From sequence record MN850645.1: a stretch of 64,000 bases of DNA; one strand, given 5' to 3'. The position numbers and the translations under genes are program-made. Below, piece after piece: positions 15,338 to 54,618 of the stretch. The notes under the pieces were generated by a model. It did no database searches. It was not told the origin of the DNA and saw only the letters and a list, made by a program, of their open reading frames with translations. Positions within the stretch are counted from its first letter, which is position 1. Each line of letters begins with the position of its first letter. This DNA is from Escherichia phage outra.

Positions 15338-15357
15338 AATACAGACGGGAGAAAGGT

Positions 15358-19340: not shown

Positions 19341-19363
19341 CGTGTTTTTATGGGTGTGCGTAT

Positions 19364-20428: not shown

Positions 20429-20452
20429 TCATAACAGAAGAGAGAAATAATC

Positions 20453-20725
20453 ATGGCATCATATAGCGCATCAATGATCGTAGCTGGCATCACTGGTAAA
20501 CCTATGCGCGGTGGCGGATCTTTCGCTAACATCAATATTGATGGGCGTTTATCCCTGGATGCAGCGATCACCGTGGCACGGGAAACATTTAAAAAAGAAT
20601 GTAATTTCAATAAACAAGATTATCTCGGCTTCGTTATTGAAAAAACCGCGCGCTTTGTGGATTATAAAAGCCCGAAAATGATCGACACTACACTAAAAGC
20701 GCAAGATGTAGCGTTTTTGCTTTAA
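20453..20725 (+). CDS. hypothetical protein (90 aa)
   Basis: ORF downstream of promoter/hairpin cassette; host-like codons. Confidence 0.55.
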   Translation: MASYSASMIVAGITGKPMRGGGSFANINIDGRLSLDAAITVARETFKKECNFNKQDYLGFVIEKTARFVDYKSPKMIDTTLKAQDVAFLL

Positions 20726-20728
20726 GGC

Positions 20729-20789
20729 TTGACACTTAAAAATAATTTTGTAATATATACCACATAAGGCGGGGAAATGGTTTCCCGCC
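20729..20789 (+). promoter_or_regulatory. sigma70-like promoter plus type-A leader hairpin
   Basis: -35 TTGACA 20729-34, -10 TAATAT 20751-56, hairpin GGCGGGGAAA-TGG-TTTCCCGCC 20768-89. Confidence 0.6.
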
Positions 20790-20811
20790 AAATCAAAGAA
20801 AGGGTAATGCA

Positions 20812-21174
20812 ATGAGCAAGCAAATCAATACTATCATGTTAAACCTGGTATCTTTCCGCGACGACGTGAAAAATCTTCCACGTGATGCAGTGGATGCACG
20901 GATCGAAAGCTATCGCTCACAGATCGCAACGCTACCGCTAAAACGTGATCAACATGCCGCTAATATGATGCTTAATGCTATGCTTAAAAAGATGATTCAA
21001 TGTGATCTTACCCTGGCTTATGAATATGCTGGCGATCTCTTTGTAACATATAGCAAGCCCGTACCAGGTATGAGCACAACCGAAGAATTGCATGCCTTAA
21101 ATCTGCGACAAGATGCATGGGATAACATGCGCCGTGTTATGGTATGGGTAGAAAGCGGTAAAATTTACGAATAA
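20812..21174 (+). CDS. hypothetical protein (120 aa)
   Basis: AAAGGG SD; downstream of cassette. Confidence 0.55.
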   Translation: MSKQINTIMLNLVSFRDDVKNLPRDAVDARIESYRSQIATLPLKRDQHAANMMLNAMLKKMIQCDLTLAYEYAGDLFVTYSKPVPGMSTTEELHALNLRQDAWDNMRRVMVWVESGKIYE

Positions 21175-21180
21175 AAACGG

Positions 21181-21234
21181 TTAACATTGCACTAAAACCT
21201 GATAAGCTATCTTAAAGCGGGAACTATTCCCGCT
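21181..21234 (+). promoter_or_regulatory. weak promoter-like sequence plus leader hairpin variant
   Basis: TTAACA-16-TAAGCT, hairpin AGCGGGAA-CTA-TTCCCGCT 21216-34. Confidence 0.35.
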
Positions 21235-21252
21235 TACATAGGATAAAACTTT

Positions 21253-21402
21253 ATGAAACAATATGTAATGAGTATTCACACCAAAAACGGCGCTACTGTT
21301 ACAACTCCGGCACGGTTTGCACTTGTAAACCGTTGCAAGAGACTAAAACGAGAGTTAAAAAATAACCGTGCAACGGGCTGCTTTAAACGCTGGGGAGGAT
21401 AA
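21253..21402 (+). CDS. hypothetical small protein (49 aa)
   Basis: hand-translated. Confidence 0.4.
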   Translation: MKQYVMSIHTKNGATVTTPARFALVNRCKRLKRELKNNRATGCFKRWGG

Positions 21403-21404
21403 TC

Positions 21405-21677
21405 TTGTTTTTTCTAAAAGTTTTTGATAATGTGATCGCTTTTGAACATGCTACAACGTTCAACCTGGCGAGATACGCTATCAGGTTTAAAGATAATGTT
21501 TATCCCCGTGCTGGTGGCGGTTACACTATCTTTAATCATCGTAACGCTCAATTAACAGATATAACGAATCCAGATCCTGGAGTGTATCGCATAGGCTGGC
21601 TACCGTCAAAAGACGCGGCAAGCATGTTTAAGGTGTGTAAACTACTAACAGAAGAGGCGAACGAACATGGGGCGTGA
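21405..21677 (+). CDS. hypothetical protein (90 aa), TTG start
   Basis: GGAGGA SD before TTG. Confidence 0.45.
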   Translation: MFFLKVFDNVIAFEHATTFNLARYAIRFKDNVYPRAGGGYTIFNHRNAQLTDITNPDPGVYRIGWLPSKDAASMFKVCKLLTEEANEHGA

Positions 21678-22221
21678 ATATGTGATCCAGTCATGGGTAA
21701 AGCATGACGCTAATGATCCGCGCATAATACCAGATGACATGATCGATCACATGGTAGGGTACAGCGGGGAGCAGATAGGGAATCGAGCGGCAAAGAGCAA
21801 CGGGCACACAAAGACGCGATCCGTTCGCCCTGGTTGGCTGGCAAATGGTAACGCTGACATTGCAAGCGCCGCAGATCCAAGCGATGACGCTAAAAATAAT
21901 CCCTTATATAGCATTGATCCGGCTTTTAAGGTGTTAGAAGAGTATCCCGCTAAATTAGCCGCACTAGATAAGGCATACGAAGAAAAGCGCATGGCATGGA
22001 CTGTATACAACACCGCTAAAATGGTGCTAGATGCAAAATTGATTAAAGCCCAGGAGAAGATCAATAAACTTGTTGCAGTAGCGCAAGAGGAAGACCAGGA
22101 CGACCAGGAGGAAGAGGAAGAAATCATGCCTACCCTGGAAGAGGAAGAGATCCAGCCATACATGCCGACGGAAGAGGAAAAAAGACAAGCCCTAAAAAAT
22201 TATGAAAATTGCATTGTGTAA
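21667..22221 (+). CDS. hypothetical protein with acidic C-terminal tail (184 aa)
   Basis: ORF; C-terminus QEEDQDDQEEEEE. Confidence 0.5.
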   Translation: MGREYVIQSWVKHDANDPRIIPDDMIDHMVGYSGEQIGNRAAKSNGHTKTRSVRPGWLANGNADIASAADPSDDAKNNPLYSIDPAFKVLEEYPAKLAALDKAYEEKRMAWTVYNTAKMVLDAKLIKAQEKINKLVAVAQEEDQDDQEEEEEIMPTLEEEEIQPYMPTEEEKRQALKNYENCIV

Positions 22222-22224
22222 GGC

Positions 22225-22280
22225 TTGACATATGCAAATAAGCCCCGTAATATGTACCACATAAAGCGGGGCAACGCCCC
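22225..22280 (+). promoter_or_regulatory. sigma70-like promoter plus short GC hairpin
   Basis: -35 TTGACA 22225-30, -10 TAATAT 22248-53, hairpin GGGGC-AAC-GCCCC 22268-80. Confidence 0.5.
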
Positions 22281-22302
22281 ATAAAGTGAAATAAAAAATC
22301 AC

Positions 22303-22330
22303 TTGACACCTGAAATCAGTAAGCTATAAT
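22303..22330 (+). promoter_or_regulatory. consensus sigma70 promoter
   Basis: -35 TTGACA 22303-08, 16-bp spacer, -10 TATAAT 22325-30. Confidence 0.65.
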
Positions 22331-22367
22331 GCTTATATAGATTGAAACATTACTAAGGAATAAAAGC

Positions 22368-22547
22368 ATGGCTATTATTGCAAAAACTGAGATCGTAGGT
22401 TTAGATTCTATCATCCTGGCATATGAGGAAGCTGTAGAAATGTATGTGGTTTCCTATGGTGATTATATCCGTGAATATAAATCTATTGATCTAGCTTTTG
22501 AATGCTATATTCGCCAGGTCAATAAAGCATATGATGATTATCGTTAA
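22368..22547 (+). CDS. hypothetical small protein (59 aa)
   Basis: hand-translated; AAGGA SD. Confidence 0.45.
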   Translation: MAIIAKTEIVGLDSIILAYEEAVEMYVVSYGDYIREYKSIDLAFECYIRQVNKAYDDYR

Positions 22548-22566
22548 AAGTTTTAGTCTTGTGCTA

Positions 22567-22595
22567 TTGACAACGAACGATAGTACAAGCATAAT
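22567..22595 (+). promoter_or_regulatory. sigma70-like promoter
   Basis: -35 TTGACA 22567-72, 17-bp spacer, -10 CATAAT 22590-95. Confidence 0.5.
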
Positions 22596-22642
22596 AACTT
22601 TTATCGGGAATACTCCTAACTAATCAAAAGAGATTAAAGACT

Positions 22643-23008
22643 ATGGCTAAAAATATCAATGTTTCTGCTTATGCTACCCTGGCTAACACTGCTAAAATTG
22701 AACTATCTAGCATTGAAGCGGTACATATTAGCGCCCGTCGCTGGTTTCAAAAGTCTTATGGTAACACTTATTTCTCTTTGATGGTTGACGTTGAGATCGG
22801 CGGTAAACTGATCGAAGTCGTTAACGTTCCGTTTCACTATGGCTACGGGGATCATTTTGATACCGTTGCCCTAGAAGAGTTTAGCAAGGTTATCAACCTG
22901 GAAGGTAAAGAGTTTTCAAATTATGCCTACCTTTCCCGTTTTTGCCGTGATAATGGGATCGCTGTATACAGTCATGCAAGCGATGTTAAACGTAAAAAAG
23001 ATTTATAA
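22643..23008 (+). CDS. hypothetical protein (121 aa)
   Basis: ORF downstream of promoter. Confidence 0.55.
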   Translation: MAKNINVSAYATLANTAKIELSSIEAVHISARRWFQKSYGNTYFSLMVDVEIGGKLIEVVNVPFHYGYGDHFDTVALEEFSKVINLEGKEFSNYAYLSRFCRDNGIAVYSHASDVKRKKDL

Positions 23009-23014
23009 AAAGCA

Positions 23015-23079
23015 TTGACAGCACGAATAAAAAGCGTAAAATGTTTCATATCAGGACGGGGAACGAAGTAACACCCCGT
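23015..23079 (+). promoter_or_regulatory. sigma70-like promoter plus hairpin (no ORF immediately downstream)
   Basis: -35 TTGACA 23015-20, -10 TAAAAT 23037-42, hairpin ACGGGG...CCCCGT 23056-79. Confidence 0.45.
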
Positions 23080-23128
23080 TAAGTAGCCCAGGAGTAAGGC
23101 ACACGAAAAACTCCCCTGATAAAATAGT

Positions 23129-23186
23129 TTGACAATGGTTTCTAATAACGTATAATACTTACATCGAGAGCGGGAACACTTCCCGC
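23129..23186 (+). promoter_or_regulatory. consensus sigma70 promoter plus leader hairpin
   Basis: -35 TTGACA 23129-34, -10 TATAAT 23151-56, hairpin GCGGGAA-CAC-TTCCCGC 23170-86. Confidence 0.65.
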
Positions 23187-23211
23187 CTCACTGAAAAAAG
23201 AGATTAACATC

Positions 23212-23451
23212 ATGGCTAAATCTAAAATGTTCTTAGGTCACAAAAACAAAACTCATTGGAATGTAAGCCTTTGGATCAACAACGATGAAGGTTTTTATAA
23301 TCTTGCGCGTGAATTTATCGCAGCTAACACCAATAAGAATGACGCAGCGCGTGATATGATGTTATTTCTTGAAAGTATGGATCAAGATAAAACGCCAGAC
23401 GGTTACAAGTTCAGTAAAACCGCGATCCGTGCCGCTATGGTTGGAATGTAA
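23212..23451 (+). CDS. hypothetical protein (79 aa)
   Basis: ORF downstream of cassette. Confidence 0.55.
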   Translation: MAKSKMFLGHKNKTHWNVSLWINNDEGFYNLAREFIAANTNKNDAARDMMLFLESMDQDKTPDGYKFSKTAIRAAMVGM

Positions 23452-23546
23452 AGGAGACATAAAAATGAAACATCGTTCGACCTATCTCACAAAACGTTTT
23501 AGCTTAGATCATAAATTGGGCTATTACGGAAGAAATAGAAAATAAT

Positions 23547-23606
23547 TTGACAACGTTTTAAATTAGTGTAAGATATATCACATAGGGCGGGAAATGGTTT
23601 CCCGCC
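23547..23606 (+). promoter_or_regulatory. sigma70-like promoter plus type-A leader hairpin
   Basis: -35 TTGACA 23547-52, -10 TAAGAT 23569-74, hairpin GGCGGGAAA-TGG-TTTCCCGCC 23586-606. Confidence 0.65.
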
Positions 23607-23628
23607 AAATCAAAGAAAGGTTATCATT

Positions 23629-23856
23629 ATGGCTATCATTATTGTTCGCGTATCCGGTACGGTTGGAAGCTCCCAGGTAGTAGCAGTTATCACCGAGAAG
23701 AAAGGGGATGATCTTCACTCTTCCTTGAATAGCTGGGCGGTAGCTAACTTCGGGCAATGGTCGAGCGTTGAGTACATCGAATCCTACCAGGTGCCAACGA
23801 TTAGCCTAACCGATCTAAATGTTGATCGCTTGTTGTGCCTGGATGGATTAAACTAA
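23629..23856 (+). CDS. hypothetical protein (75 aa)
   Basis: ORF downstream of cassette. Confidence 0.55.
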   Translation: MAIIIVRVSGTVGSSQVVAVITEKKGDDLHSSLNSWAVANFGQWSSVEYIESYQVPTISLTDLNVDRLLCLDGLN

Positions 23857-23864
23857 AAATAATC

Positions 23865-23920
23865 TTGACAAGATAACTAAAATCAGTAAAATGTAATGCA
23901 TAGGGCGGCAATAGTGCCGC
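23865..23920 (+). promoter_or_regulatory. sigma70-like promoter plus type-B leader hairpin
   Basis: -35 TTGACA 23865-70, -10 TAAAAT 23887-92, hairpin GCGGCA-ATAG-TGCCGC 23905-20. Confidence 0.6.
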
Positions 23921-23943
23921 TCCTAGTGAGAGAGATTATCAAA

Positions 23944-24156
23944 ATGGCTAATATCCGCACACTGTTAAAAAATGCAAAACAAGTTTTATTTTCTGATCAC
24001 GATCATTTTAATAAAGATATTACAGGCGTGAAGAATATCAAAGAGGTAAAAAGTGTTATGGGTATCTATTGCAATATGAAGCGAGTAGGCACATTTGGTG
24101 ATAAAGTATTATATCAGGCAGGTGACTACAATTTTACTTTGACAATTATCAACTAA
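23944..24156 (+). CDS. hypothetical protein (70 aa)
   Basis: start moved to ATG 23944 (track start 23896 lies inside promoter/hairpin). Confidence 0.5.
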   Translation: MANIRTLLKNAKQVLFSDHDHFNKDITGVKNIKEVKSVMGIYCNMKRVGTFGDKVLYQAGDYNFTLTIIN

Positions 24157-24167
24157 GGGATCACAAA

Positions 24168-24326
24168 ATGAAAACTTGCCAATGTGGTAAAAAGTCTATC
24201 TCTGGTTTAAAACGTGGCGTTGCTCTTTGTCAATATCACTATAACGCTCAAACGTGGGGTAAGCAGTGGGCGGATCAGGTGGAAGAGGCAAAGAAAGAAA
24301 ATATAAAAGTAGTTGCAAAGAAATAA
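24168..24326 (+). CDS. small Zn-ribbon-like protein (52 aa)
   Basis: hand-translated; CQCG...CQYH motif. Confidence 0.4.
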   Translation: MKTCQCGKKSISGLKRGVALCQYHYNAQTWGKQWADQVEEAKKENIKVVAKK

Positions 24327-24373
24327 AAATAGAGTAAACTGTATTCATCAAGGCGGTGGAATAGCTCACCGCC
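24313..24373 (+). promoter_or_regulatory. promoter-like sequence plus leader hairpin variant
   Basis: TTGCAA-16-TAAACT, hairpin GGCGGTG...CACCGCC 24352-73. Confidence 0.4.
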
Positions 24374-24397
24374 TAACAAAGAGAAGAGGAAAACATC

Positions 24398-24568
24398 ATG
24401 ATCACTTTCGCTACCCGTGAAGCCGCTCGCAACGTTGCACGTAAAGTTAATGCCGCCAACCTGGGCGCTACGCTTAAAGCCCCGGTAAAAGATGAATCAG
24501 GTAAATGGATCTTTCCTGGTCTGCGTCACGCTGATAAGCTGGGAACATTAACGTTAAAAAATAAATAA
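24398..24568 (+). CDS. hypothetical small protein (56 aa)
   Basis: hand-translated; GAGGA SD. Confidence 0.45.
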   Translation: MITFATREAARNVARKVNAANLGATLKAPVKDESGKWIFPGLRHADKLGTLTLKNK

Positions 24569-24575
24569 TATCCGC

Positions 24576-24634
24576 TTGACAGTAGCATGGTTTATAAGTA
24601 AAGTAACAACAACGGCGGGAAATGGTTTCCCGCC
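24576..24634 (+). promoter_or_regulatory. sigma70-like promoter plus type-A leader hairpin
   Basis: -35 TTGACA 24576-81, -10 TAAAGT 24599-604, hairpin GGCGGGAAA-TGG-TTTCCCGCC 24614-34. Confidence 0.55.
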
Positions 24635-24654
24635 ATCAATAAAGAGATAAGATT

Positions 24655-25014
24655 ATGAAATCAGTAAAAGCAATCAAAACTTACATTGTATCGGCTATTT
24701 CTTTTGAAGGTACTACAACCGAAAAAGAAAAAATCACCGAACTGATGCGCCGTTTTAATTCTGAATACTGGTATCCCGATAATCAAAAACGTTACAATTA
24801 TAACGTGATCAAGGCGATAGCCTCATGGTTACAAGGTTTACCGTCAGACATTAACATTGCCTTTGATTATAACGAGATTGATCATTTATTAATTGAATGG
24901 AAGTACATAAAAGAAACAAGCAAAGAAACAACCGTTACCCGTGAGCGGGAAAATTATTGGTTATATATTGCAAGCATGATCGTAATCCTGGCAAAACAGC
25001 ATAACGTGGCGTAA
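24655..25014 (+). CDS. hypothetical protein (119 aa)
   Basis: ORF downstream of cassette. Confidence 0.55.
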   Translation: MKSVKAIKTYIVSAISFEGTTTEKEKITELMRRFNSEYWYPDNQKRYNYNVIKAIASWLQGLPSDINIAFDYNEIDHLLIEWKYIKETSKETTVTRERENYWLYIASMIVILAKQHNVA

Positions 25015-25029
25015 TTAAGAGGAAGAAAC

Positions 25030-25167
25030 ATGAACGCATCACAGCAGATCGAAAAATTCAACCGCAGCAAGGCGCGTAAAGATTGGAACGAAGAGATCAC
25101 CAAAAAAGGCGACAAGCGGAACAAAACAAAAAGAGATCGCAGCACAAAAAGATACTGGAACGAATAA
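25030..25167 (+). CDS. hypothetical small basic protein (45 aa)
   Basis: hand-translated; GAGGA SD; Lys/Arg-rich. Confidence 0.4.
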   Translation: MNASQQIEKFNRSKARKDWNEEITKKGDKRNKTKRDRSTKRYWNE

Positions 25168-25174
25168 CAAAAAA

Positions 25175-25196
25175 GGGCGCAATAAGCGCCCTTTTA
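25175..25196 (+). terminator. rho-independent terminator
   Basis: GGGCGC-AATAA-GCGCCC stem-loop followed by TTTT. Confidence 0.65.
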
Positions 25197-25286
25197 GCTT
25201 ATATAGGGGCTTGTTACCCATAGGCAATGGTAACGCCAGGGCAAGCCTATAAATCAACGTTAGACGGCTTTACAGGAGCTTTAAAA

Positions 25287-25469
25287 ATGAGATTAGAAGA
25301 AATAAGCAAGGCACTAGACCAGGAGCAAAGGTTATGCGCCCGATATCGTGATCAATATGGCTTCATAACTAGCGGCGTGATCCTGGGGATGGAAGGCAAT
25401 AAGATTTTTATTGACACGTTGAAAAACGTTGTATATAGTGACAATATAATCTCAATAAAACATATATGA
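25287..25469 (+). CDS. hypothetical small protein (60 aa)
   Basis: start moved to ATG 25287 with AGGAG SD. Confidence 0.4.
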   Translation: MRLEEISKALDQEQRLCARYRDQYGFITSGVILGMEGNKIFIDTLKNVVYSDNIISIKHI

Positions 25470-25477
25470 GGCAAGAA

Positions 25478-25879
25478 ATGAAAAACTTATTGATCGCTGG
25501 TTTAATCTCTTTTGGCATGGTTGGAACATCTAGCGCGGCGATATCCTCCACAGTAGCAGAATTAAGCGCCGTTGATGCAATGGAAAACGTCATGCTTATT
25601 AATAATGCGATCCCCGATGAAATCATGGAGGATTCACACATGATCGCTTATGGTGCTGTTACACAACTAACGGCAAAAATAGATAAATCTATTGTTAATG
25701 GCTTAAATGAAGATGTACCATGTGAAATTATTACCAGTGTGCTGACTACTCAAAATTTTACGCCGTGGTTAAAAAGTATTCAAAAAGTACACAGTACAGC
25801 CGCAGATCGTAGCAATGAAAAACTAGTGTCAGCACTTGCAACGTATACCCTAGCAAAATGCACTGAGATAAAAGATTGA
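25478..25879 (+). CDS. putative secreted/periplasmic protein
   Basis: MKNLLIAGLISFGMVGTSSA signal-peptide-like N-terminus; GAGG SD. Confidence 0.5.
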   Translation: MKNLLIAGLISFGMVGTSSAAISSTVAELSAVDAMENVMLINNAIPDEIMEDSHMIAYGAVTQLTAKIDKSIVNGLNEDVPCEIITSVLTTQNFTPWLKSIQKVHSTAADRSNEKLVSALATYTLAKCTEIKD

Positions 25880-25904
25880 CAACATAGAAAGCACGTTATA
25901 AGAT
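25876..25904 (+). promoter_or_regulatory. sigma70-like promoter
   Basis: -35 TTGACA 25876-81, 17-bp spacer, -10 TAAGAT 25899-904. Confidence 0.5.
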
Positions 25905-25926
25905 ACACACAACAAAGGAGAACTAC

Positions 25927-26229
25927 ATGAACGGCATAGCTAAAACGTTTTTTCTTTTTTCTGGTGTAAATGATCCATCAATAAAAGTCGATAGTGTAAA
26001 AGAAAAAAATACTATCACCGCTAAATTGTTTCAAGATGAAACAAATAACGTGCTAATCATTAATCTTAAAGAAGTAACGAAAGGTTATTATACTATTGCT
26101 TACCATGCGATCTATCATGCTGGTACTGGTGAGGAAGTGCAAACAAGCAACAACGAAAGCGCGGCGCTACCTGGTGATCTGGTGCTGGGCGTTATCAGTT
26201 TAATTGTCAATGATTTTTTTAAGGAGTAA
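25927..26229 (+). CDS. hypothetical protein (100 aa)
   Basis: AAAGGAG SD. Confidence 0.55.
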   Translation: MNGIAKTFFLFSGVNDPSIKVDSVKEKNTITAKLFQDETNNVLIINLKEVTKGYYTIAYHAIYHAGTGEEVQTSNNESAALPGDLVLGVISLIVNDFFKE

Positions 26230-26233
26230 AACC

Positions 26234-26329
26234 ATGCCCTATTTACATTTATTTTTCGGTATCTTATTAACAGGATCTTTTTTCTTCTGTATGCTTGTTT
26301 CTATTGTAAACCACGTTTTAAGACATTAA
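26234..26329 (+). CDS. hypothetical membrane peptide (31 aa)
   Basis: hand-translated; AAGGAG SD; hydrophobic. Confidence 0.35.
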   Translation: MPYLHLFFGILLTGSFFFCMLVSIVNHVLRH

Positions 26330-26338
26330 GGAAACAGC

Positions 26339-26458
26339 ATGAAAATTATTCCCGTACAATATAGCGTAATAAATCCAGCATATGAGGAAGGAAGGAAAAC
26401 AAGCATGGCTTTATGTTGTATTGCTACTATAGCCATGTTGTTATACATTGTGTTTTAA
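26339..26458 (+). CDS. hypothetical membrane peptide (39 aa)
   Basis: hand-translated; AAGGAA SD; hydrophobic C-terminus. Confidence 0.35.
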   Translation: MKIIPVQYSVINPAYEEGRKTSMALCCIATIAMLLYIVF

Positions 26459-26487
26459 TAGGTTTTATAGTTGTACGCTTTAAAGGC

Positions 26488-26516
26488 TTGACAATTTTTT
26501 GTTATGCTTTAAACTA
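26488..26516 (+). promoter_or_regulatory. promoter-like sequence (good -35, weak -10)
   Basis: -35 TTGACA 26488-93; -10 candidate weak. Confidence 0.3.
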
Positions 26517-26558
26517 TATCTTGAAAACGGCAAAGGCCGCAAACAAAAGGGTAAAATT

Positions 26559-26882
26559 ATGAAATCTGTGATCGGTGTTTATTTGGATAACTCTGATTTT
26601 TTCTATCATCGCGCGCGTTTACTTGATGCTATTGAAATGATAGAATCAGGCTTTAAAGAGTATCGCCTTGCACATGATGACCTGGAAGCATTACAGGGCA
26701 ATAGTGTTTTTACATTGCAAGCGAAAGCACTATGCAAAAGCCGGATCGAGATTGCAAGTAAAAAGATAGAGCGCGGCATGTCCTGGTTGCGCACCGCAGA
26801 AATCAACATGGGGCAATGGTACGGCGAAAACTTAGAAAATAAACATGCTTTTGTCAATGTAGAAAATATTGAAGATTATTGA
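26559..26882 (+). CDS. hypothetical protein (107 aa)
   Basis: start moved to ATG 26559. Confidence 0.5.
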   Translation: MKSVIGVYLDNSDFFYHRARLLDAIEMIESGFKEYRLAHDDLEALQGNSVFTLQAKALCKSRIEIASKKIERGMSWLRTAEINMGQWYGENLENKHAFVNVENIEDY

Positions 26883-26944
26883 TTGACAGCACACCGAACG
26901 GGGAGTATATTGTATCTCATAGAGCGGGGAAATGGTTTCCCCGC
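26883..26944 (+). promoter_or_regulatory. sigma70-like promoter plus type-A leader hairpin
   Basis: -35 TTGACA 26883-88, -10 TATATT 26906-11, hairpin GCGGGGAAA-TGG-TTTCCCCGC 26924-44. Confidence 0.6.
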
Positions 26945-26964
26945 CTTAAAAGAAGAGATAAGCT

Positions 26965-27249
26965 ATGAAGATCACAAAAGCACTTTCCAACTATGCAGCA
27001 CGTCGCGGCTTATGTTTAACCGTTGAAAACCTGGGGAAAGAAGATTTTTTGTGCTTTTGGGAGCTTGAGAATGATAATGAGTGGATCTTCTCTTATTCTA
27101 TCTGCGAAGATCAAAACGGTTGTTTATTAGCCTGGCGCGGTAATATCTATCTACCGGAAGAAATCAAAGAAGAATTACCAGGCACGATCATGACTGAGAA
27201 ACAGCTTAAGGAAGTGATCAATTTTGTAGGGCAAAACATTAAAAAATAA
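26965..27249 (+). CDS. hypothetical protein (94 aa)
   Basis: ORF downstream of cassette. Confidence 0.55.
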   Translation: MKITKALSNYAARRGLCLTVENLGKEDFLCFWELENDNEWIFSYSICEDQNGCLLAWRGNIYLPEEIKEELPGTIMTEKQLKEVINFVGQNIKK

Positions 27250-27250
27250 T

Positions 27251-27307
27251 TTGACACTAGGCAAACAACGTAGTAAAGTTTATCACATAGGGCGGCAATA
27301 GTGCCGC
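27251..27307 (+). promoter_or_regulatory. sigma70-like promoter plus type-B leader hairpin
   Basis: -35 TTGACA 27251-56, -10 TAAAGT 27274-79, hairpin GCGGCA-ATAG-TGCCGC 27292-307; leader nearly identical to 20401-20452. Confidence 0.6.
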
Positions 27308-27330
27308 TCATAACAGAAGAGAAACAAATC

Positions 27331-27501
27331 ATGATCCCAACTATGTTTTATGTATCGCGCAAAGGTCACAATATTTTTTGGTCTGAAGATTTAAATGAAG
27401 CCATGACGTTTGCCCGTGATCGTGTCGCTATCGGTGGCGTTAACATTACCGTAACCGATGAAAATGGCATTGAATACTATAACGGCGACGATGAAGAGTA
27501 A
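27331..27501 (+). CDS. hypothetical small protein (56 aa)
   Basis: start moved to ATG 27331 (track start inside hairpin). Confidence 0.5.
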   Translation: MIPTMFYVSRKGHNIFWSEDLNEAMTFARDRVAIGGVNITVTDENGIEYYNGDDEE

Positions 27502-27508
27502 TTAATGA

Positions 27509-27529
27509 GGCGGGGGAATATTCCCCGCC
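27509..27529 (+). promoter_or_regulatory. intercistronic leader-type hairpin
   Basis: GGCGGGGGAA-TA-TTCCCCGCC between two ORFs without a recognisable promoter. Confidence 0.45.
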
Positions 27530-27548
27530 GTCAATAAAGAGGTAAATC

Positions 27549-27818
27549 ATGAAAATATCATTGGACGTTGCAATCAAGGCCATCGAATCCGGTTACACCC
27601 TGGTAAAAGATGATAAGGCTAAAATAGTGCATCATGTTAACAAGGAAACAGGCGAAAGCATGATCACATATAAAGCCGCCTACTTTCTCCAATCAGTAGC
27701 AGATCCGCGCGTACAACGCCAGGTTACGGCGGCTATTGCTAAAAAAGTATGTGCTTTACAGGGTACAAGTTTTAACGAGATCGCCCCGTGTTTTGACTGG
27801 TCGAGCTTGAAAAAATAG
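27549..27818 (+). CDS. hypothetical protein (89 aa)
   Basis: GAGG SD. Confidence 0.55.
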   Translation: MKISLDVAIKAIESGYTLVKDDKAKIVHHVNKETGESMITYKAAYFLQSVADPRVQRQVTAAIAKKVCALQGTSFNEIAPCFDWSSLKK

Positions 27819-27819
27819 T

Positions 27820-27847
27820 TTGACAATATGCGGTTATCTGGTAAAGT
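27820..27847 (+). promoter_or_regulatory. sigma70-like promoter (degenerate hairpin follows)
   Basis: -35 TTGACA 27820-25, -10 TAAAGT 27842-47. Confidence 0.5.
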
Positions 27848-27899
27848 GTACGACATAGGGCGGGGCAATAAGGCAACGCCCACTAATGAGGGTAAAATC

Positions 27900-28004
27900 A
27901 TGTTAGAGAAAATTTTCACGGTTGTAGTAGTGGGCCTGGCGTTATCGGTTGGAGTGATTGCAACTATGGCTAACATGATCCTATCTTCCCACGGTATTGG
28001 ATAA
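27900..28004 (+). CDS. hypothetical membrane peptide (34 aa)
   Basis: hand-translated; GAGGG SD; hydrophobic. Confidence 0.35.
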   Translation: MLEKIFTVVVVGLALSVGVIATMANMILSSHGIG

Positions 28005-28014
28005 GGTGAATCAA

Positions 28015-28230
28015 ATGATCACGAATAAGACAGGTAAAACAGAATTTTTACGCGGCTTGCAAATTGGTAAACCTGAAATATGGCATTGCACTAAATCCGC
28101 GCATAATGAGATGAAAGACTTTACCGCCACGTTACAACGTGTTAAAATATCTATTACGCAGAAAAAAGCCTTATTAGTAGTAGAAAACGAGATACCGCAA
28201 ACCATTATTATTGTCGAGCGTACAGCATGA
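28015..28230 (+). CDS. hypothetical protein (71 aa)
   Basis: start moved to ATG 28015 with AAGGTG SD. Confidence 0.45.
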   Translation: MITNKTGKTEFLRGLQIGKPEIWHCTKSAHNEMKDFTATLQRVKISITQKKALLVVENEIPQTIIIVERTA

Positions 28231-28613
28231 AAACTGAAATCATTATTGAAATCATCAACGGTTATAAAGAAGCCTTTATTTTTGCTGAATCAGCCAGGGA
28301 TCATGAAGGTAATTTTGTAAACGACATGACTGACTATGATTTTTCAGATCAAGCCCATCAGCGGATCATTCATGACGTAGCGGCTTATTGTGATGCCAAT
28401 GATGCTGCTATCTCTGAGGCAATGAGCGACGGCGCAACAGCAAACCAGATCGGGAATGACTTACATTTCACCCGTAACGGTCACGGCGTAGGCTTTTGGG
28501 ATCGCCCTGAAATATACACTACTAACACCGCCAACCGCCTAACAAATGCAGCTAAATTAATGCCATCGGTGCATGCTTACATTGGTGAAGATAATTTGAT
28601 TTATATTGAATAA
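28227..28613 (+). CDS. hypothetical protein (128 aa)
   Basis: 4-nt overlap with upstream gene. Confidence 0.55.
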   Translation: MKTEIIIEIINGYKEAFIFAESARDHEGNFVNDMTDYDFSDQAHQRIIHDVAAYCDANDAAISEAMSDGATANQIGNDLHFTRNGHGVGFWDRPEIYTTNTANRLTNAAKLMPSVHAYIGEDNLIYIE

Positions 28614-28619
28614 AAAGTA

Positions 28620-28678
28620 TTGACACCGATCCCCGATATGTTATTATTTACCACGTAGGCGGGAAATGGTTTCCCGCC
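28620..28678 (+). promoter_or_regulatory. sigma70-like promoter plus type-A leader hairpin
   Basis: -35 TTGACA 28620-25, -10 TATTAT 28642-47, hairpin GGCGGGAAA-TGG-TTTCCCGCC 28658-78. Confidence 0.65.
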
Positions 28679-28702
28679 AGGTAATCAAAAAAGGTAAATA
28701 CT

Positions 28703-29092
28703 ATGCGCAACCTGGTTTCTGTTTCTAACGTTGAAAAATTTCAATCCTTGCAGGGTATCGTTAACAACGTAGCGCCTTTTCTAGTCAATGGCTTGATTGC
28801 AAAGATGAAAAATAAACATCATGCAGCATGGTCTGCTTACTGCTTTGATAATGATGAAAAAGCGGCTGAAATGATGTTAAATATGCTGTTAGATAGTGTA
28901 GAATCATCTTTACCGGAAAACATCGCAGAAGAGATCACCTATCGTTATAATATGGCGATCACCTATCAGGAGGTTGCGCAATTCAATATGATGGACGATG
29001 ACGAACAACAGGATCAGGAAATGTTTTGGGAATATGCAGATCGTCAATCGGCTTTTGATGAAAAGTTAGCGATGTATTATAACGAATATTAA
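28703..29092 (+). CDS. hypothetical acidic protein (129 aa)
   Basis: AAAGG SD; downstream of cassette. Confidence 0.55.
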   Translation: MRNLVSVSNVEKFQSLQGIVNNVAPFLVNGLIAKMKNKHHAAWSAYCFDNDEKAAEMMLNMLLDSVESSLPENIAEEITYRYNMAITYQEVAQFNMMDDDEQQDQEMFWEYADRQSAFDEKLAMYYNEY

Positions 29093-29108
29093 TACACGGT
29101 AAAAGAAA

Positions 29109-29133
29109 GGGGCGCACTAAGCGCCCTTTTTTG
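29109..29133 (+). terminator. rho-independent terminator
   Basis: GGGGCGC-ACTA-AGCGCCC stem-loop followed by TTTTTTG. Confidence 0.7.
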
Positions 29134-29477
29134 TATTCTTTTTCACGATGGAAGTAACACGTAAAGAATAAACGTAAGAGGTGGCGTAAAACAGCCTAAA
29201 ACCGATTATAACCGCTTAAACAAGGTAGTAATGACTAATCACCTTGCCAGGATGAAAAAGCTGTTATAAAGCTATCTAGAGCGTTTAAAGCACATAGGAA
29301 ATAATTTGCTTTTTATCTTGCCTTTTATCCTGCTTTTGATTATTATTATGGAACGGGCGGCACCTGGGGACAGGGGAAGATAATCACCGGAAGATCCCGC
29401 TATATATTAATAGCTAATACCTATCAAACAACAAAACATCAAAGGAATAAACTATCAAATCTTTACAATCCTACCTA

Positions 29478-29537
29478 TTGACACAGGATCACCCTTATAC
29501 TAATATGTATCCCGTAGGGCGGGAAATGGTTTCCCGC
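29478..29537 (+). promoter_or_regulatory. sigma70-like promoter plus type-A leader hairpin
   Basis: -35 TTGACA 29478-83, 17-bp spacer, -10 TAATAT 29501-06, hairpin GCGGGAAA-TGG-TTTCCCGC 29519-37. Confidence 0.65.
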
Positions 29538-29556
29538 TTGATATAGGAATCATACC

Positions 29557-30496: not shown

Positions 30497-30570
30497 AATG
30501 ATAATCATTCTTATTTATAGCTGATTATTTATGCAATAAACTGCATAATGCAATAATGATAATCATTCTT
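30497..30570. promoter_or_regulatory. two Fur-box-like sites (AAATGATAATCATTCTTA; AATAATGATAATCATTCTT)
   Basis: GATAATCATT core shared with Fur consensus. Confidence 0.45.
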
Positions 30571-31424
30571 AACTTATGACCATCTAACCTATAAAATAAT
30601 AAGCTATCTAACTAAATTAAAACTAATTATCTCACCTTTATTTATAACTTACTGTTACTATCTCATTGATAACCTTATATTAAACAACAATAACTAATAT
30701 AAATCATTACTAAGCTAAATATAATCTATCTAACCTTTAAAACTATAACTATAATCTATCGAATTGTTGCACAAAGTAACTATTAAATTGTTAGTAACAT
30801 TGCTAAATAATTAATATCCTATCTATTTATGATCTAATCTTTACCTTCCTATTTATTACCTAAATAACCATTTCATATAGTAATTATTTCATACAATAAC
30901 TATAACAAGAAACATAATTCGCAAGCGTATCATTAGCAGCCTATGCCGGACACATAGGCGGCTAATAATAACGCAACTACACACCCCACATAATAACCAT
31001 CACCGATAGTTATTATTTGTGCTTATGTAGCTTGCAACAATTGCAAGCGCAACAATATACTAAGGTATATTGTATCCCTTACATTGTTGCGGTGCGTTAT
31101 TATTAGCTAATGTTTAGAACATTGGCTATAATATAAGCTGCATATAATAAGCTATTCAATAATAAACATCGTGAATAATGACATTGATGATCATAATGCG
31201 CCACCCTCCAGGGGGCGCTATGTGAACACAAAGAAATCTTTCTTATCAAGAAAATATTATCACTATTGCGCAAAATTATTTACATCTGAATAGATGATTT
31301 TTCATACTATTATTGTTATTTGTTGAGCATAGTTATAGCCTATTTGTTGAGCCTACTTTCTTAAAAGCGCAATAAATCAGAATTATCTTGATTTTTAGTG
31401 CGTTTTATAGTATAGAAAATATGC

Positions 31425-31443
31425 AAATGATAATCATTATCAG
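31425..31443. promoter_or_regulatory. near-consensus Fur box (AATGATAATCATTATC)
   Basis: 16 contiguous bases identical to positions 4-19 of E. coli Fur consensus GATAATGATAATCATTATC. Confidence 0.55.
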
Positions 31444-31607: not shown

Positions 31608-31640
31608 GAATGATAATACAAATGATAATTATTCTCATTG
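31608..31640. promoter_or_regulatory. Fur-box-like tandem site (TGAATGATAATACAAATGATAATTATTCTCATTG)
   Basis: repeated GATAAT hexamers and palindromic half-sites. Confidence 0.4.
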
Positions 31641-36927: not shown

Positions 36928-37332
36928 ATGTGGTCTGTTAAAATCAAATATAATGCACAGTATTATGGTGGACAACCTTATGAAGTTGTTATTTGTGACT
37001 GTATCTCTAAAGAAGTTGCACAGCTTTGTGGCACTGGTGTTAGTGAAGCTATGAACAAAATGCATAACTCGACTGTGCGTTACCTGGATCAAGATATTCC
37101 AGAAGATGTAAATGATTATGGTTACGAAATTATTTACAGTGAAGGTAAGAAGCTCTCTATTGAAGATGCACTTAAAGCACTACCTGCTATGTGCAATCCA
37201 ACACCAGAAGCAGTTAAAAAGATTTTACCAGAATCCAACCCCGATGAATATGCTGCTATGGTTGCTTCAGACATGTGGAATCTCTGTCGAGAAACTATGA
37301 TTAAAAATCTGGTGGAAATGGCGCATGAGTAA
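36928..37332 (+). CDS. hypothetical protein (134 aa)
   Basis: AAGGAGAG SD. Confidence 0.55.
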   Translation: MWSVKIKYNAQYYGGQPYEVVICDCISKEVAQLCGTGVSEAMNKMHNSTVRYLDQDIPEDVNDYGYEIIYSEGKKLSIEDALKALPAMCNPTPEAVKKILPESNPDEYAAMVASDMWNLCRETMIKNLVEMAHE

Positions 37333-37543
37333 AACGCACTTTATACATCCATTTGATCCAAAGAACAAGGCGGTTATACACCGCCGTTGGACTGAAACGC
37401 GCATTACAAAATGTCCTGTGCCAGCAGCAGAGGAATATAACAAAACATATAAAGCAGAATTTGTGGAGTACACCTTTGTGAATAACAAAGGGAAAGAGGT
37501 TTATGTTCCAGAATACTGCCTTTGGATAAAATGGGAGGAATAA
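37325..37543 (+). CDS. hypothetical protein (72 aa)
   Basis: overlapping start. Confidence 0.45.
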   Translation: MSKTHFIHPFDPKNKAVIHRRWTETRITKCPVPAAEEYNKTYKAEFVEYTFVNNKGKEVYVPEYCLWIKWEE

Positions 37544-51615: not shown

Positions 51616-51819
51616 TTAACTAGCAACCGTAACTTCCGAACTTTCTTCTTTCGTGCTGTCTACGATATGCCTGGTGGCAATATACGAGACTTGCCAGTTA
51701 CCATCTGGTGTAGTCTCAATAAGTACCCTATCTACTTCGAGAAAATGCAAAAATTCAACCATCGCTCGCTTCGATAGGAATTGTTTTTTAACAGTCTCCT
51801 CAAAAGATTGAACTGCCAT
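51616..51819 (-). CDS. hypothetical protein (67 aa)
   Basis: ORF in operon orientation. Confidence 0.45.
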   Translation of the reverse strand: MAVQSFEETVKKQFLSKRAMVEFLHFLEVDRVLIETTPDGNWQVSYIATRHIVDSTKEESSEVTVAS

Positions 51820-51828
51820 GTTTCCTCC

Positions 51829-52491
51829 TTATTTAATATTCAATTTTGCACAAAGACGTTGTACCGCTTTGGCATCGAACAAACTCCCACGAATAGTTCT
51901 CTTTCCTGATTCATTCAGATGCTTTGCAATCGTCATATATGGCGTTTTACAAGCTCTGTATGCAACTAAAGAATCTTTTAAAGAAAGCGCAAACTCTCTT
52001 GAGCGTTTTGCTTCTTCCGTTTTCGTATAATCTGTTCTTTTGTATTTAGGGTTTGCTGCACCAAGAAGCGTTCCCTTCGCTTTTGCTACCTTAAGGCTCT
52101 TCTTAACACGATCAGATATTGCACGAGCCTCTTCTTCTGCCAGAACTGCTAAAATATTTATTATCATATTTTCAGCGGAGGGCATAGTTGCTATTCGTAC
52201 ATTAATCATCTCTAACAAGGTTGCAACAGAAGCTGTGTTACGTCCCAGACGGTCAACCTTAGCAACAACAAGTGTAGCACCTGTTTCCTTGCAAAGATTA
52301 ACAGCTTTTACAAGCTCTCTACGTTGCTTCCAATCACCTTTACCAGAATAAAACTCTGCAAAGCTACCTACAATAGTATAATTTTCTTGTGAATCCAGGA
52401 AGCGTTGGATATCTGCTTCCTGTGATTCTATACCATACTGGTTGCCTTGTTGTTTCTTCTTAGAAAGTCGATGATACAGTACAAACTTCAT
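51829..52491 (-). CDS. serine recombinase (resolvase/invertase family)
   Basis: N-terminal YHRLSKKKQ (catalytic Ser), VDRLGRN motif, C-terminal HTH-like region; 220 aa. Confidence 0.75.
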   Translation of the reverse strand: MKFVLYHRLSKKKQQGNQYGIESQEADIQRFLDSQENYTIVGSFAEFYSGKGDWKQRRELVKAVNLCKETGATLVVAKVDRLGRNTASVATLLEMINVRIATMPSAENMIINILAVLAEEEARAISDRVKKSLKVAKAKGTLLGAANPKYKRTDYTKTEEAKRSREFALSLKDSLVAYRACKTPYMTIAKHLNESGKRTIRGSLFDAKAVQRLCAKLNIK

Positions 52492-52548
52492 AATACCCTC
52501 CTGTTCTGTTGCAGGAAGTATGCACTACCTTAATGTTAAAGTCAACAG

Positions 52549-52752
52549 TTAAGTAGTGGTAATATCATCTTCTTGAATATCAGGGTCAACTTCTGCAAAG
52601 ATAGCCTCTACAGGAATTTCTTCACCTGCTATTCTAGAAAGAAGCACTGAACCAATAGCTTTTGCGTGTTCTTCGGATTCCGCATAAACATTAGTTCCTG
52701 TGTCTTTTTTCTTAGTTTCGTTAAAATATACCAGATAGTAATTGTATGCCAT
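52549..52752 (-). CDS. hypothetical acidic protein (67 aa)
   Basis: ORF in operon orientation. Confidence 0.45.
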   Translation of the reverse strand: MAYNYYLVYFNETKKKDTGTNVYAESEEHAKAIGSVLLSRIAGEEIPVEAIFAEVDPDIQEDDITTT

Positions 52753-53003
52753 TATTCATCCCAATCGTTGTTGCGAGCACTTTCAAGAACCTTGACAACT
52801 TCTGCGTACTCTACAGCTAAACCAGCACACACTTCAGCTTGTTTTGCAATTGCTTGCTTAAAGAACATAGCGATTGCAACACTCTGTGTTGTGTGAATGT
52901 TATCTGCTTTAGTTGATACATGAAGATCAAAATCTTCTTCATCAAAGGTGAGTTCCATAGTAACAATAAATTTCTCGGTCATAAAAATGCTCCTCTTAAA
53001 CAA
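52752..53003 (-). CDS. hypothetical protein (83 aa)
   Basis: ORF in operon orientation. Confidence 0.45.
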   Translation of the reverse strand: MFKRSIFMTEKFIVTMELTFDEEDFDLHVSTKADNIHTTQSVAIAMFFKQAIAKQAEVCAGLAVEYAEVVKVLESARNNDWDE

Positions 53004-53505
53004 AATAGAAAGGTTGAGTTAAACCCAGCCTGTTTTTTGGGTCGTAGACGTACCAAGCATATGCTGTCTTATCAGTACCACCTGCAACAAAAGATGGTCG
53101 TTCAGAAAGAACAATCAAATTTGTTGGTGGATTCTGTTTATGGAATTCCCTTCGTTTAATAGACTCTAGGAACCCAAGACGCAACAAGTATATGCAAACG
53201 TCTGCTTCTTTTAAGCTCTTTTGCAAGAACTCAAGTGCAAGTCTGAATGGTGGATTTGTGATTATAATATCCGGCTTAGTATGCCATTCGTGGTTAAAAT
53301 AATCCTTCCCTTCTTCTAACTCACAATATTCTGATCCTTCTGGAAAATGTTGATAAATTGCAGCAGCAGCGCCTTTACACGGTTCTGCAAAAATAAAACC
53401 TTCTTCTTTAAGGTTATTAAAATCTATTACACTAAATAATGCATTTATACATTTTTGTGGAGTAGGATAGTAATCAGTCGGTGGACGATCATACTTATTT
53501 GCCAC
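52996..53505 (-). CDS. small amino-methyltransferase-like protein (putative phage Dam-type N6-adenine MTase)
   Basis: FAEPCKGAAAA (SAM-binding-like) and IITNPPF (NPPF catalytic motif); 169 aa. Confidence 0.5.
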   Translation of the reverse strand: MANKYDRPPTDYYPTPQKCINALFSVIDFNNLKEEGFIFAEPCKGAAAAIYQHFPEGSEYCELEEGKDYFNHEWHTKPDIIITNPPFRLALEFLQKSLKEADVCIYLLRLGFLESIKRREFHKQNPPTNLIVLSERPSFVAGGTDKTAYAWYVYDPKNRLGLTQPFYFV

Positions 53506-53964: not shown

Positions 53965-54618
53965 TTAATTATCAGAGGACACTTTATCAAGTTTTTCAGA
54001 GACTGTCAATACTTTTTCTTGTGATTCTTTCATTTCTGCTAAAATACTTTCAGCTTCATCACTATCAGGATCACCAGTCAACAGCATACTAATTAGTTGC
54101 TCCTTGCTGAAGTTCAGAATATCTTCCGCTGTTAACTCCAGTTGTTCTTCGATCTCTTCGATAAAAGTTTCACCGCCTGAAAAAGCATCTCGCAGTTTTG
54201 CAACTTCCATCGCTTCTTCTGGGGTTGCCCCAGCGTCTAAAGCTGCTAAAGCAAAATCTGCCCCACTACCAACAGCATAATAATCTTCAGTTAAAGGATA
54301 TGCTCGCGTTGGATTGTTACCCTCGTGCATATAAATTTTACCATCTGGGTGAACAACTAATGCCACAAACTCTTCATCTTCTTTATCAGGATCTGACTGG
54401 ATCACCAAACCTGGGATTGTCTCTTGTGCTGCTTGGCATTGTAAGTTTTGTTCGAACCAAGAAAAGAAAGTCAGGATAGAAGACAGACGTCCTGCACCAC
54501 CAACAAGGTAATCCCCAATTTTACGCACTTTCTTGAAATTTAAAGTGTCTACACGACTACCTACTGTTACTTTACCGTCAGACAGAATTTTGTTACGTGT
54601 TGCAATAATTGTTGTCAT
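53965..54618 (-). CDS. HslV-like proteasome-family Ntn hydrolase
   Basis: N-terminal MTTII (Thr directly after Met), KKVRK, GGAG, YYAVGSGADFALAALDAG blocks align with HslV; extra acidic C-terminal tail of about 50 aa. Confidence 0.6.
   Translation of the reverse strand: MTTIIATRNKILSDGKVTVGSRVDTLNFKKVRKIGDYLVGGAGRLSSILTFFSWFEQNLQCQAAQETIPGLVIQSDPDKEDEEFVALVVHPDGKIYMHEGNNPTRAYPLTEDYYAVGSGADFALAALDAGATPEEAMEVAKLRDAFSGGETFIEEIEEQLELTAEDILNFSKEQLISMLLTGDPDSDEAESILAEMKESQEKVLTVSEKLDKVSSDN

Follow-up and report, generated by a model that had tools for sequence, protein, structure and literature searches.

The closest described counterpart of the gene considered here is gp053 of Escherichia phage phi92 (YP_009012384.1), which carries the RefSeq name 'DNA invertase'; gp056 of the same phage is named 'DNA methyltransferase'. 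Both genes are present in the stretch of DNA analysed here, a 64,000-nucleotide sequence from Escherichia phage outra (MN850645.1), referred to in its full length as the window. At 99.5% protein identity and in the same genomic position, the recombinase of the window is the same gene as gp053. Judged by nucleotide identity (approximately 99% to phi92, ESCO8 and Paula; 99.5% to ESCO8 over the first 22 kb), the window belongs to Justusliebigvirus in Stephanstirmvirinae, virulent myoviruses of roughly 146 kb. A literature search found no experimental study of the recombinase gene; one paper holds that the homologue in Phapecoctavirus keeps concatemers as single genomes, which is put forward there as assertion or speculation only.

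A sequence-only reading of the window had described a 220-aa serine recombinase of the resolvase/invertase type, recognised by its YHRLS and DRLGRN motifs, three open reading frames (ORFs) away from a 169-aa NPPF-motif methyltransferase-like protein, and had proposed either a Gin/Cin-type tail-fibre inversion switch or an inserted mobile cassette. The analysis presented here arrives at a different overall picture, to which we give roughly even chances: an intact small serine recombinase of a distinct subtype, long resident in these phages and probably served by its own promoter, that would (a part held with less confidence) act on phage DNA in the manner of a resolvase. Both genes are real, yet had been annotated before as phi92 gp053 and gp056; what is new is the domain assignment of the recombinase, the reciprocal empty sites that record its relocation, the private promoter found throughout, and a probable insulation from read-through translation.

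Catalytic integrity and domain architecture

The recombinase begins with MKFVLYHRLSKKK, in which YHRLS occupies residues 6-10; VDRLGRN follows at residues 79-85. Pfam PF00239 (Resolvase) matches residues 4-141 (E=8.4e-22, 78.3 bits against a cut-off of 23.3), and sequence matches in PDB are to the Sin, Tn3 and gamma-delta resolvases. A database search uncovered 83 relatives of 200-290 aa, 33 of which, with identity down to 31%, were aligned as a family. Q24, D80, R81, R84, E121 and R128 are invariant in this alignment, and Y6, R8 and S10 are retained in at least 90% of the sequences. Conservation of the catalytic residues indicates that the gene is not a pseudogene and that its active site is under purifying selection; the enzyme is probably active. 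Mutated catalytic residues, which the sequence-only reading had named as the mark of a pseudogene, are thus not what the alignment shows, and the gene is intact.

In an AlphaFold2 (AF2) model of the protein (predicted local distance difference test score, pLDDT, 87.6), the catalytic alpha/beta domain is followed by a long E-helix at residues 108-138, and four helices make up the C-terminal domain. Profile, PDB matches, alignment and model together bear out the original classification as a resolvase/invertase-type serine recombinase, within which the architecture defines a distinct subtype. In a Foldseek search against PDB, the best full-length structural match was Bxb1, and the other good matches covered the catalytic domain alone. 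The best NCBIfam match is to the N-terminal ~225 positions of CcrB (10-225 of 542), and the PHROGs matches fall in both 'DNA invertase' and 'integrase' families, including positions 88-307 of 651 in the phrog_95 'integrase' profile. Residues 140-220 gave no Pfam match, even at E<=5. Three relatives that can be aligned end to end (33-39% identity) match positions 4-51 of 102 of PF07508 ('Recombinase') above the gathering score, over a stretch corresponding to residues ~175-220 of the window protein, and the C-terminal motif of the family, IAxxLNxxGxxTxxG, matches the start of the Recombinase domain. Because of the Bxb1 structural match, the N-terminal alignments to CcrB and phrog_95, and the presence of PF07508 in relatives, the C-terminal DNA-binding domain is assigned, on profile and model evidence, to a truncated large-serine-recombinase type (the first half of the 'Recombinase' domain) and not to the HTH_7 type of Hin, Gin and the resolvases.

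Residency and relocation of the gene

A 4.2-kb query around both genes found full-length matches in 55 phage records (95-99.3% identity), the best being Escherichia phages Paula, phi92 and ESCO32, and was collinear in all 55 Justusliebigvirus records, each of which carries the recombinase at the same place. The gene is likewise syntenic in FKP3 (78% identical), in metagenomic relatives at 88-60% identity, and usually even in relatives at 50% identity. In the usual arrangement it stands between a homologue of gp054 (64-67 aa, ending in TTT-stop) and a homologue of gp052. Homologues of gp054 lie directly upstream in five relatives (L012, L013, L014, L015 and L004), a 67-aa ORF takes the gp054 position in FKP3, L027, L028, L030, L031 and L032, and gp052 homologues lie downstream in L012, L013, L015 and L004; a different gene follows in L014. 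Since the same succession of small ORF, recombinase and small ORF recurs in most relatives, the recombinase is regarded as an old resident.

Phapecoctavirus copies, which are ~57% identical, occupy a different genomic place. phAPEC8 contains the same block of genes as the window, namely PhoH, HslV-like, methyltransferase (gp177), gp178, gp179, gp180, gp181, phosphatase, and DprA-like. Here, gp179 (the gp054 homologue) and gp180 (the gp052 homologue) adjoin, with only a terminator-like hairpin and no recombinase between them, whereas in the window the recombinase and its 57-nt leader are found exactly between the two homologues. The recombinase of phAPEC8, 57% identical, is instead located in a plus-strand early block after gp263, 15-16 kb away and on the other strand; the gp263 homologue of the window (37325-37543) has another gene directly next to it and no recombinase. 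By this comparison, each of the two genomes has an empty site where the other carries the gene (reciprocal empty sites), and promoter and ORF alone were relocated. No terminal repeats or shared end sequences were found at the borders of this unit. The gene is thus described by synteny as a long-resident single-gene unit with one clear relocation, in Phapecoctavirus. The suggestion of an inserted mobile cassette survives in part: there is an insertion of promoter plus ORF relative to Phapecoctavirus, with a copy elsewhere, but the gene is an old resident in most relatives and the methyltransferase is not included.

Promoter and predicted leader structure

The 57-nt gap upstream of the recombinase is filled by a predicted promoter and the ribosome-binding site (RBS); no repeated half-sites were found in it, although diverged subsites could escape, and comparison with the corresponding gap of FKP3 revealed nothing conserved beyond promoter elements. 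Because a consensus scan of the region returned 26 promoter-like sites against 24.1 in shuffled sequence, and hence no excess, support for the promoter comes from its recurrence across lineages. A TTGACA or TTGACT -35 element with a -10 hexamer 16-18 nt downstream is present in all 15 lineages inspected (the window, and 14 others in which it was read by eye), lying 30-70 nt upstream of the start codon even where this places it inside the end of the preceding ORF. We infer that the recombinase is transcribed from its own host-type sigma-70 promoter.

The leader is also predicted to fold back on its translation start. In the window, the 3' end of the -10 box runs into an anti-Shine-Dalgarno (anti-SD) element, CUUCCUG (52518-52512), whose pairing partner, CAGGAGG (52503-52497), includes the RBS. 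The centroid fold of the leader has an energy of -13.5 kcal/mol, and the anti-SD:SD duplex reaches -11.2 kcal/mol against a shuffle mean of -6.5 (p=0.03). Equivalent pairs with other flanking bases occur in seven further lineages, the variants including CUCCUCA with UGAGGAG, CUCCUCUU with AAGAGGAG, AUCUCCUCU with AGAGGAGAU and, in a Vibrio phage, AUCUCCUUA with UAAGGAGAU. In 8 of the 15 lineages the duplex exceeds composition-matched shuffles in strength (p<=0.004 in four, p=0.03-0.10 in four), and its flanking bases covary across lineages. A second Vibrio phage, VPMCC14, which stood outside the 15-lineage test, places its anti-SD (AUCCCUUGUG) in the promoter spacer, where it pairs with CACAAGGGAU (fold z=-3.8). 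RNAalifold predicted no structure from an alignment of the 5' leaders, in which the arms are out of register; per-sequence duplex energies were used instead.

Given that the anti-SD coincides in part with the -10 box or with the expected start site, it should be missing from transcripts that begin at the recombinase's own promoter, and read-through transcripts from the upstream operon would carry an occluded RBS. The outcome would be a small amount of enzyme, produced early in infection without dependence on the operon around it. In many lineages the anti-SD hairpin therefore has a probable role, predicted from duplex energies, in insulating the recombinase from read-through translation. Occlusion of the RBS in read-through transcripts, predicted here from sequence, is the point of likeness to IS10, whose transposase is guarded against outside transcription by 'fold-back inhibition'.

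Possible substrates and roles

The closest relatives outside phages, ~35% identical over their full length, are lone recombinases on non-mobilizable plasmids of 6.4 kb and 7.3 kb; on the 7.3-kb plasmid, from Phaeobacter, the gene adjoins ParA, a ribbon-helix-helix (RHH) protein, and Rep. A lone recombinase beside Par/Rep on a small plasmid is the classic setting for multimer resolution. Because these relatives presumably play that role, the window enzyme is tentatively suggested, at low confidence, to act on phage DNA early in infection as a resolvase or by a cyclisation-type reaction. Such an enzyme would cyclise or resolve replicating or incoming genomes.

Several observations weigh against the overall picture. 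The DNA beside the gene showed no res-like repeated subsites, nor was a second copy of that DNA found elsewhere in the genome; BLAST of the gene-proximal flanks against the window and phi92 gave only matches of 10-16 nt (one of 23 nt, 91%), all with E>0.01. Headful-packaging phages need concatemers, so a late-acting resolvase would be harmful. The anti-SD is absent from 7 of the 15 lineages, including Phapecoctavirus. In Schickermooser (L011, NC_048196.1; 1395-1660), at least four frameshifts fall in the first ~250 nt of the gene, the remainder being intact, which suggests either decay, in which case the gene can be lost, or sequencing error. In PVP-SE1, from the sister subfamily Vequintavirinae, PhoH and ClpP neighbour the methyltransferase and no recombinase is encoded within 3.5 kb of it, and no Vequintavirinae appear among the 60 listed of the 226 recombinase matches.

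A selfish or relic mobile gene, in which a unit of promoter and recombinase persists and occasionally relocates, possibly by its own activity, without benefit to the phage, is considered unlikely. The reciprocal empty sites of window and phAPEC8 are what such a unit would leave behind, the relocated segment extends over promoter and ORF and no further, the copy in Schickermooser has frameshifts, and occlusion of the RBS in read-through transcripts is the design of IS10-type transposase genes. Nevertheless, hardly any Justusliebigvirus or Phapecoctavirus record is without the gene, and its catalytic residues are conserved in relatives as distant as 31% identity; only one relocation is seen across the group, each genome holds a single copy, and the borders of the unit are devoid of terminal repeats or common end sequences.

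It is more doubtful still that the enzyme is directed at the host or at competitors, rearranging host, prophage, satellite or co-infecting phage DNA early in infection for takeover or counter-defence. A host-type promoter does imply expression right after injection, and searches of the phage genome revealed no cognate site. Host Pin-type serine recombinases are described, in two reports, as altering phage adsorption by inversion of prophage DNA, which makes Pin-invertible prophage DNA a conceivable target (PMC12529663; bioRxiv 10.1101/2025.03.28.646004). However, nothing found in the analysis speaks positively for such a role, the DNA-binding domain is unlike that of Pin and Gin, so that pix or gix targets are unlikely, and E. 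coli genomes contain nothing that matches the gene-proximal DNA. A blastn search with the gene and its flanks against 5,426 complete E. coli genomes returned no match, and hence no prophage or host copy of the recombinase, which argues against an integrase or prophage role. A reading that joins the two preceding ones, with a minimal autonomous 'recombinase-only' unit hopping within virulent phage genomes, or an early weapon rearranging host, prophage or competitor DNA, in place of a housekeeping resolvase, is held with little conviction.

Inversion and the 'DNA invertase' label

A Gin/Cin/Hin-type invertase would flip a phage segment, for example alternative tail-fibre ends, for host-range switching. 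In favour of this idea are a weak catalytic-domain likeness to P1 Cin, the name 'DNA invertase' chosen by GenBank annotators, and one inversion polymorphism among relatives, at window positions 13774-14644. The sequence-only reading had seen no target inverted repeats by eye, and systematic searches likewise found none above chance. In the 16 kb around the gene (8 kb on each side), where gix- or hix-like sites had been proposed as a check, the best pairs are 21-31 nt long and 70-86% complementary, which is the chance level. A seeded search of the whole window yielded only promoter families, terminator hairpins and Fur-box-like palindromes, and phi92 between 30 and 120 kb yielded only terminator palindromes and chance-level pairs (76-88% complementary).

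In phi92, a single strand carries every tail-fibre and tailspike gene (gp141-gp153), at a distance of 55-70 kb from gp053, and their module holds no oppositely oriented partial copies or alternative exons. When relatives were compared, no orientation variants appeared near the gene: in at least 50 of the 55 Justusliebigvirus records, a 22-kb query with the gene at its centre matches collinearly and in one place. Whole-genome BLAST of alia, A150 and phi92 (30-120 kb) showed collinearity apart from the inversion at 13774-14644.

This 0.87-kb segment, with flanks at 13568-13737 and 14839-15500, is reversed relative to phi92, alia and A150; Phapecoctavirus 536P1 has it in the window orientation. 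The segment contains homologues of phi92 gp216 and gp214 together with the 5' end of gp217; the window ORFs 13708-14049(-) and 14748-15086(+), which are separate and divergent, are fused by the inversion into phi92 gp217. The window-type junction is present in 23 of the 55 Justusliebigvirus records and also in Phapecoctavirus, the opposite orientation having been checked directly in three genomes only. No inverted repeats were found at the breakpoints, the best match being 11/12 nt and off the junctions, and the junctions show no similarity to recombinase-adjacent or upstream DNA. Identity is 90-93% between the two forms and 97-99.8% within one form. As evidence of a programmed switch the inversion was therefore rejected, given the lack of breakpoint repeats, the lack of likeness to recombinase DNA, and the divergence of the forms; it looks like two old haplotypes exchanged by homologous recombination. 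Were the gene a hopping unit or a weapon, as considered above, the inversion could be a rare product at cryptic sites. Beside it, the segment 14744-15100 is mosaic, with 88% identity to Phapecoctavirus 536P1 and 88.5% to phi92 and only 72-74% to alia and A150, which points to allele exchange between co-circulating phages.

None of the tested defining features of a Gin/Cin system was found, and by these comparisons the recombinase is not linked to invertible DNA. With only chance-level repeats or terminator palindromes, distant fibre genes that lie on one strand and have no reversed alternative exons, collinear relatives, a C-terminal domain other than HTH_7, and a sole inversion 38 kb away whose breakpoints have no inverted repeats, whose junctions are unlike recombinase-adjacent DNA and whose orientations differ more from each other than within their own kind, the tail-fibre switch of the sequence-only reading is very improbable. 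The label 'DNA invertase' on phi92 gp053 and its orthologues in Justusliebigvirus and Phapecoctavirus stems from annotation transfer. Also highly improbable are two further roles, that of a DNA-binding regulator without catalytic activity and that of an integrase serving a cryptic lysogenic or carrier state. Small serine recombinases frequently act as repressors of their own promoters and short palindromes overlap the recombinase promoter in several lineages, but the catalytic residues are strictly conserved, the 220-aa protein is without zinc-ribbon or coiled-coil domains, and no integrated copy is present in the 5,426 E. coli genomes.

The missing integrase domains and the lack of an integrated copy in these genomes, together with the results on inversion, lead to the conclusion that, as far as genome comparison goes, the recombinase is neither an integrase nor a host-range inversion switch. 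Phage-therapy screening flags any recombinase as a possible sign of lysogeny, and phi92- and phAPEC8-like phages are common therapy candidates; the status established here aids safety calls and the correction of a 'DNA invertase' label that has spread between records. For an intact serine recombinase kept for so long by strictly virulent phages, identification of the substrate would reveal what site-specific recombination contributes to the lytic cycle.

The neighbouring methyltransferase-like gene and small ORFs

The features of the locus are collected in Table 1. As originally noted, the recombinase is three ORFs from the methyltransferase-like gene: two small ORFs lie between, and the methyltransferase is the third ORF upstream.

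Table 1. Coordinates of the recombinase locus in the window
Feature	Position	Strand	Remarks
Small serine recombinase, phi92 gp053 orthologue	51829..52491	-	220 aa; PF00239, conserved catalytic residues, AF2, Foldseek
Sigma-70-like promoter, TTGACT-17 nt-CATACT	52517..52545	-	Predicted; in 57-nt gap upstream of recombinase
Predicted RNA hairpin, anti-SD:RBS	52497..52518	-	RNA fold, duplex energies against shuffles
Downstream small ORF, phi92 gp052 equivalent	51616..51819	-	67 aa; syntenic in most relatives
Upstream small ORF, phi92 gp054 equivalent	52549..52752	-	67 aa; ends TTT-stop; syntenic in most relatives
Second small ORF between recombinase and methyltransferase	52752-53003		
Amino-methyltransferase-like protein, phi92 gp056 equivalent	52996..53505	-	169 aa; NPPF at residues 84-87

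The 169-aa protein belongs to phrog_799 (E=1.7e-56) and gave no sequence match in Pfam, NCBIfam or PDB. Among the 120 of 216 homologues listed, most are 150-203 aa long, with a few shorter fragments. In an alignment of 32 sequences, N84-P85-P86, E41-P42-C43 and R136-P137 are invariant, F87 is found in at least 90% of sequences, and E41-P42-C43-x-G45 is conserved. Foldseek searches with the AF2 model (pLDDT 90.7) returned, at probability 1.0, the N6-adenine DNA methyltransferases CamA, M.TaqI, M.BseCI and type I M subunits (EcoKI M), as well as the rRNA adenine methyltransferases KsgA, Dim1 and Erm. What the protein has in common with M.TaqI/CamA and KsgA/Erm is the Rossmann fold and an S-adenosylmethionine (SAM)-binding region ahead of the invariant NPP(F); unlike them, it has no target-recognition domain and no Pfam or NCBIfam family match. 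According to the model, it is a bare catalytic core of the Class I Rossmann amino-methyltransferase-like type, so the methyltransferase-like assignment of the sequence-only reading held up.

With tblastn, the methyltransferase was found in 550 phage records, including Vequintavirinae (PVP-SE1, rV5-like), and the recombinase in 226. phAPEC8 encodes the two on opposite strands, with ~16 kb between them. A cassette of recombinase and methyltransferase was rejected because of these unequal counts, the separation in Phapecoctavirus, and the PVP-SE1 methyltransferase without a nearby recombinase; by distribution and synteny, the recombinase is not functionally linked to its neighbour. Intervening ORFs are missing in some relatives at 82-88% identity (L027-L029). 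In L029 (Logan SRR33452765 contig, 1-1063), the methyltransferase lies directly upstream of the recombinase, and in L027 and L028 a gp054-like ORF alone separates the two. On this comparison, the small ORFs around the recombinase turn over quickly.

Beyond the methyltransferase, a 217-aa HslV/proteasome-like peptidase with an acidic C-terminal extension is encoded at 53965-54618(-) (Pfam Proteasome, E=1.6e-5; phrog_1040). The same block contains further host-like auxiliary genes, namely PhoH, Sir2-like, DprA-like, and dTDP-rhamnose pathway genes.

Other repeats and related records

Fur-box-like clusters (AATGATAATCATT) are located at 19361-19449, 30497-30567, 31426-31438 and 31621-31633, with 31422-31443 reading GCAAATGATAATCATTATCAGC. 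Near-consensus matches number 12 against 0.36 expected by chance, and the clusters occupy low-GC non-coding zones that bracket an early gene block of ~11 kb. Their positions are kept in alia, A150 and Phapecoctavirus 536P1, and similar arrays occur in T5-like and Vequintavirinae phages; since no recombinase was among the matches examined there, the arrays were rejected as recombination sites. They may make the early genes iron- or Fur-responsive, or titrate Fur.

Between small plus-strand genes at 20394-29555, approximately nine repeats of GTAAGATATATCACATAGGGCGG are each followed by a GC-rich hairpin (GGCGGGAAATGGTTTCCCGCC). This repeat family looks like a phage promoter and stem-loop element; in the corresponding early block of phAPEC8, 'PHIRE' promoters are annotated. 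At 19120-19340, just upstream of the first Fur-box cluster, lie three AT-rich repeats in tandem, 67-75 nt in length. Because several related GenBank records start or end within window positions 18.6-21.8 kb, this zone may lie near a replication or packaging landmark.

Four records labelled as C. jejuni phages and marked UNVERIFIED (MG065639, MG065645, MG065656 and MG065689; 'Campylobacter phage' A150, A145, C3 and A110a) share 98.6% identity with this coliphage over the region, and the collinearity extends through the genome. Judged by this identity, their Campylobacter host label is probably wrong.

Comparison with known serine recombinases

The order of domains sets the window protein apart from IS607-type transposases, which begin with a MerR-like helix-turn-helix followed by the catalytic domain; here, the catalytic domain is N-terminal, at residues 4-141. 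With Gin (Mu), Cin (P1), Hin and Pin, the protein shares the serine-recombinase catalytic domain, although the likeness to P1 Cin is weak (32% over 114 residues, 44-157; E=1e-4). Unlike the genes of these invertases, that of the window has no adjoining invertible segment, no inverted repeats as crossover sites and no Hin-type helix-turn-helix, and it sits inside an operon of a virulent phage.

The Tn3/gamma-delta, Sin and beta-type resolvases resemble the window protein in size class, in the combination of catalytic domain and E-helix, and as its best PDB sequence matches. They differ from it in the C-terminal domain, which in the window protein is related to PF07508 and not to HTH_7, and in that no res-like array was detected upstream of the window gene. 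Large serine recombinases such as Bxb1, phiC31 and CcrB reach at least ~400 aa in their full type; compared with these, the window protein, at only 220 aa, is without the rest of the Recombinase domain, the zinc ribbon and the coiled coil, and its gene comes with no attP/attB evidence and no prophage form. It is nevertheless to this class that the full-length structure (Bxb1), the alignment to CcrB positions 10-225, and the C-terminal motif connect the recombinase.

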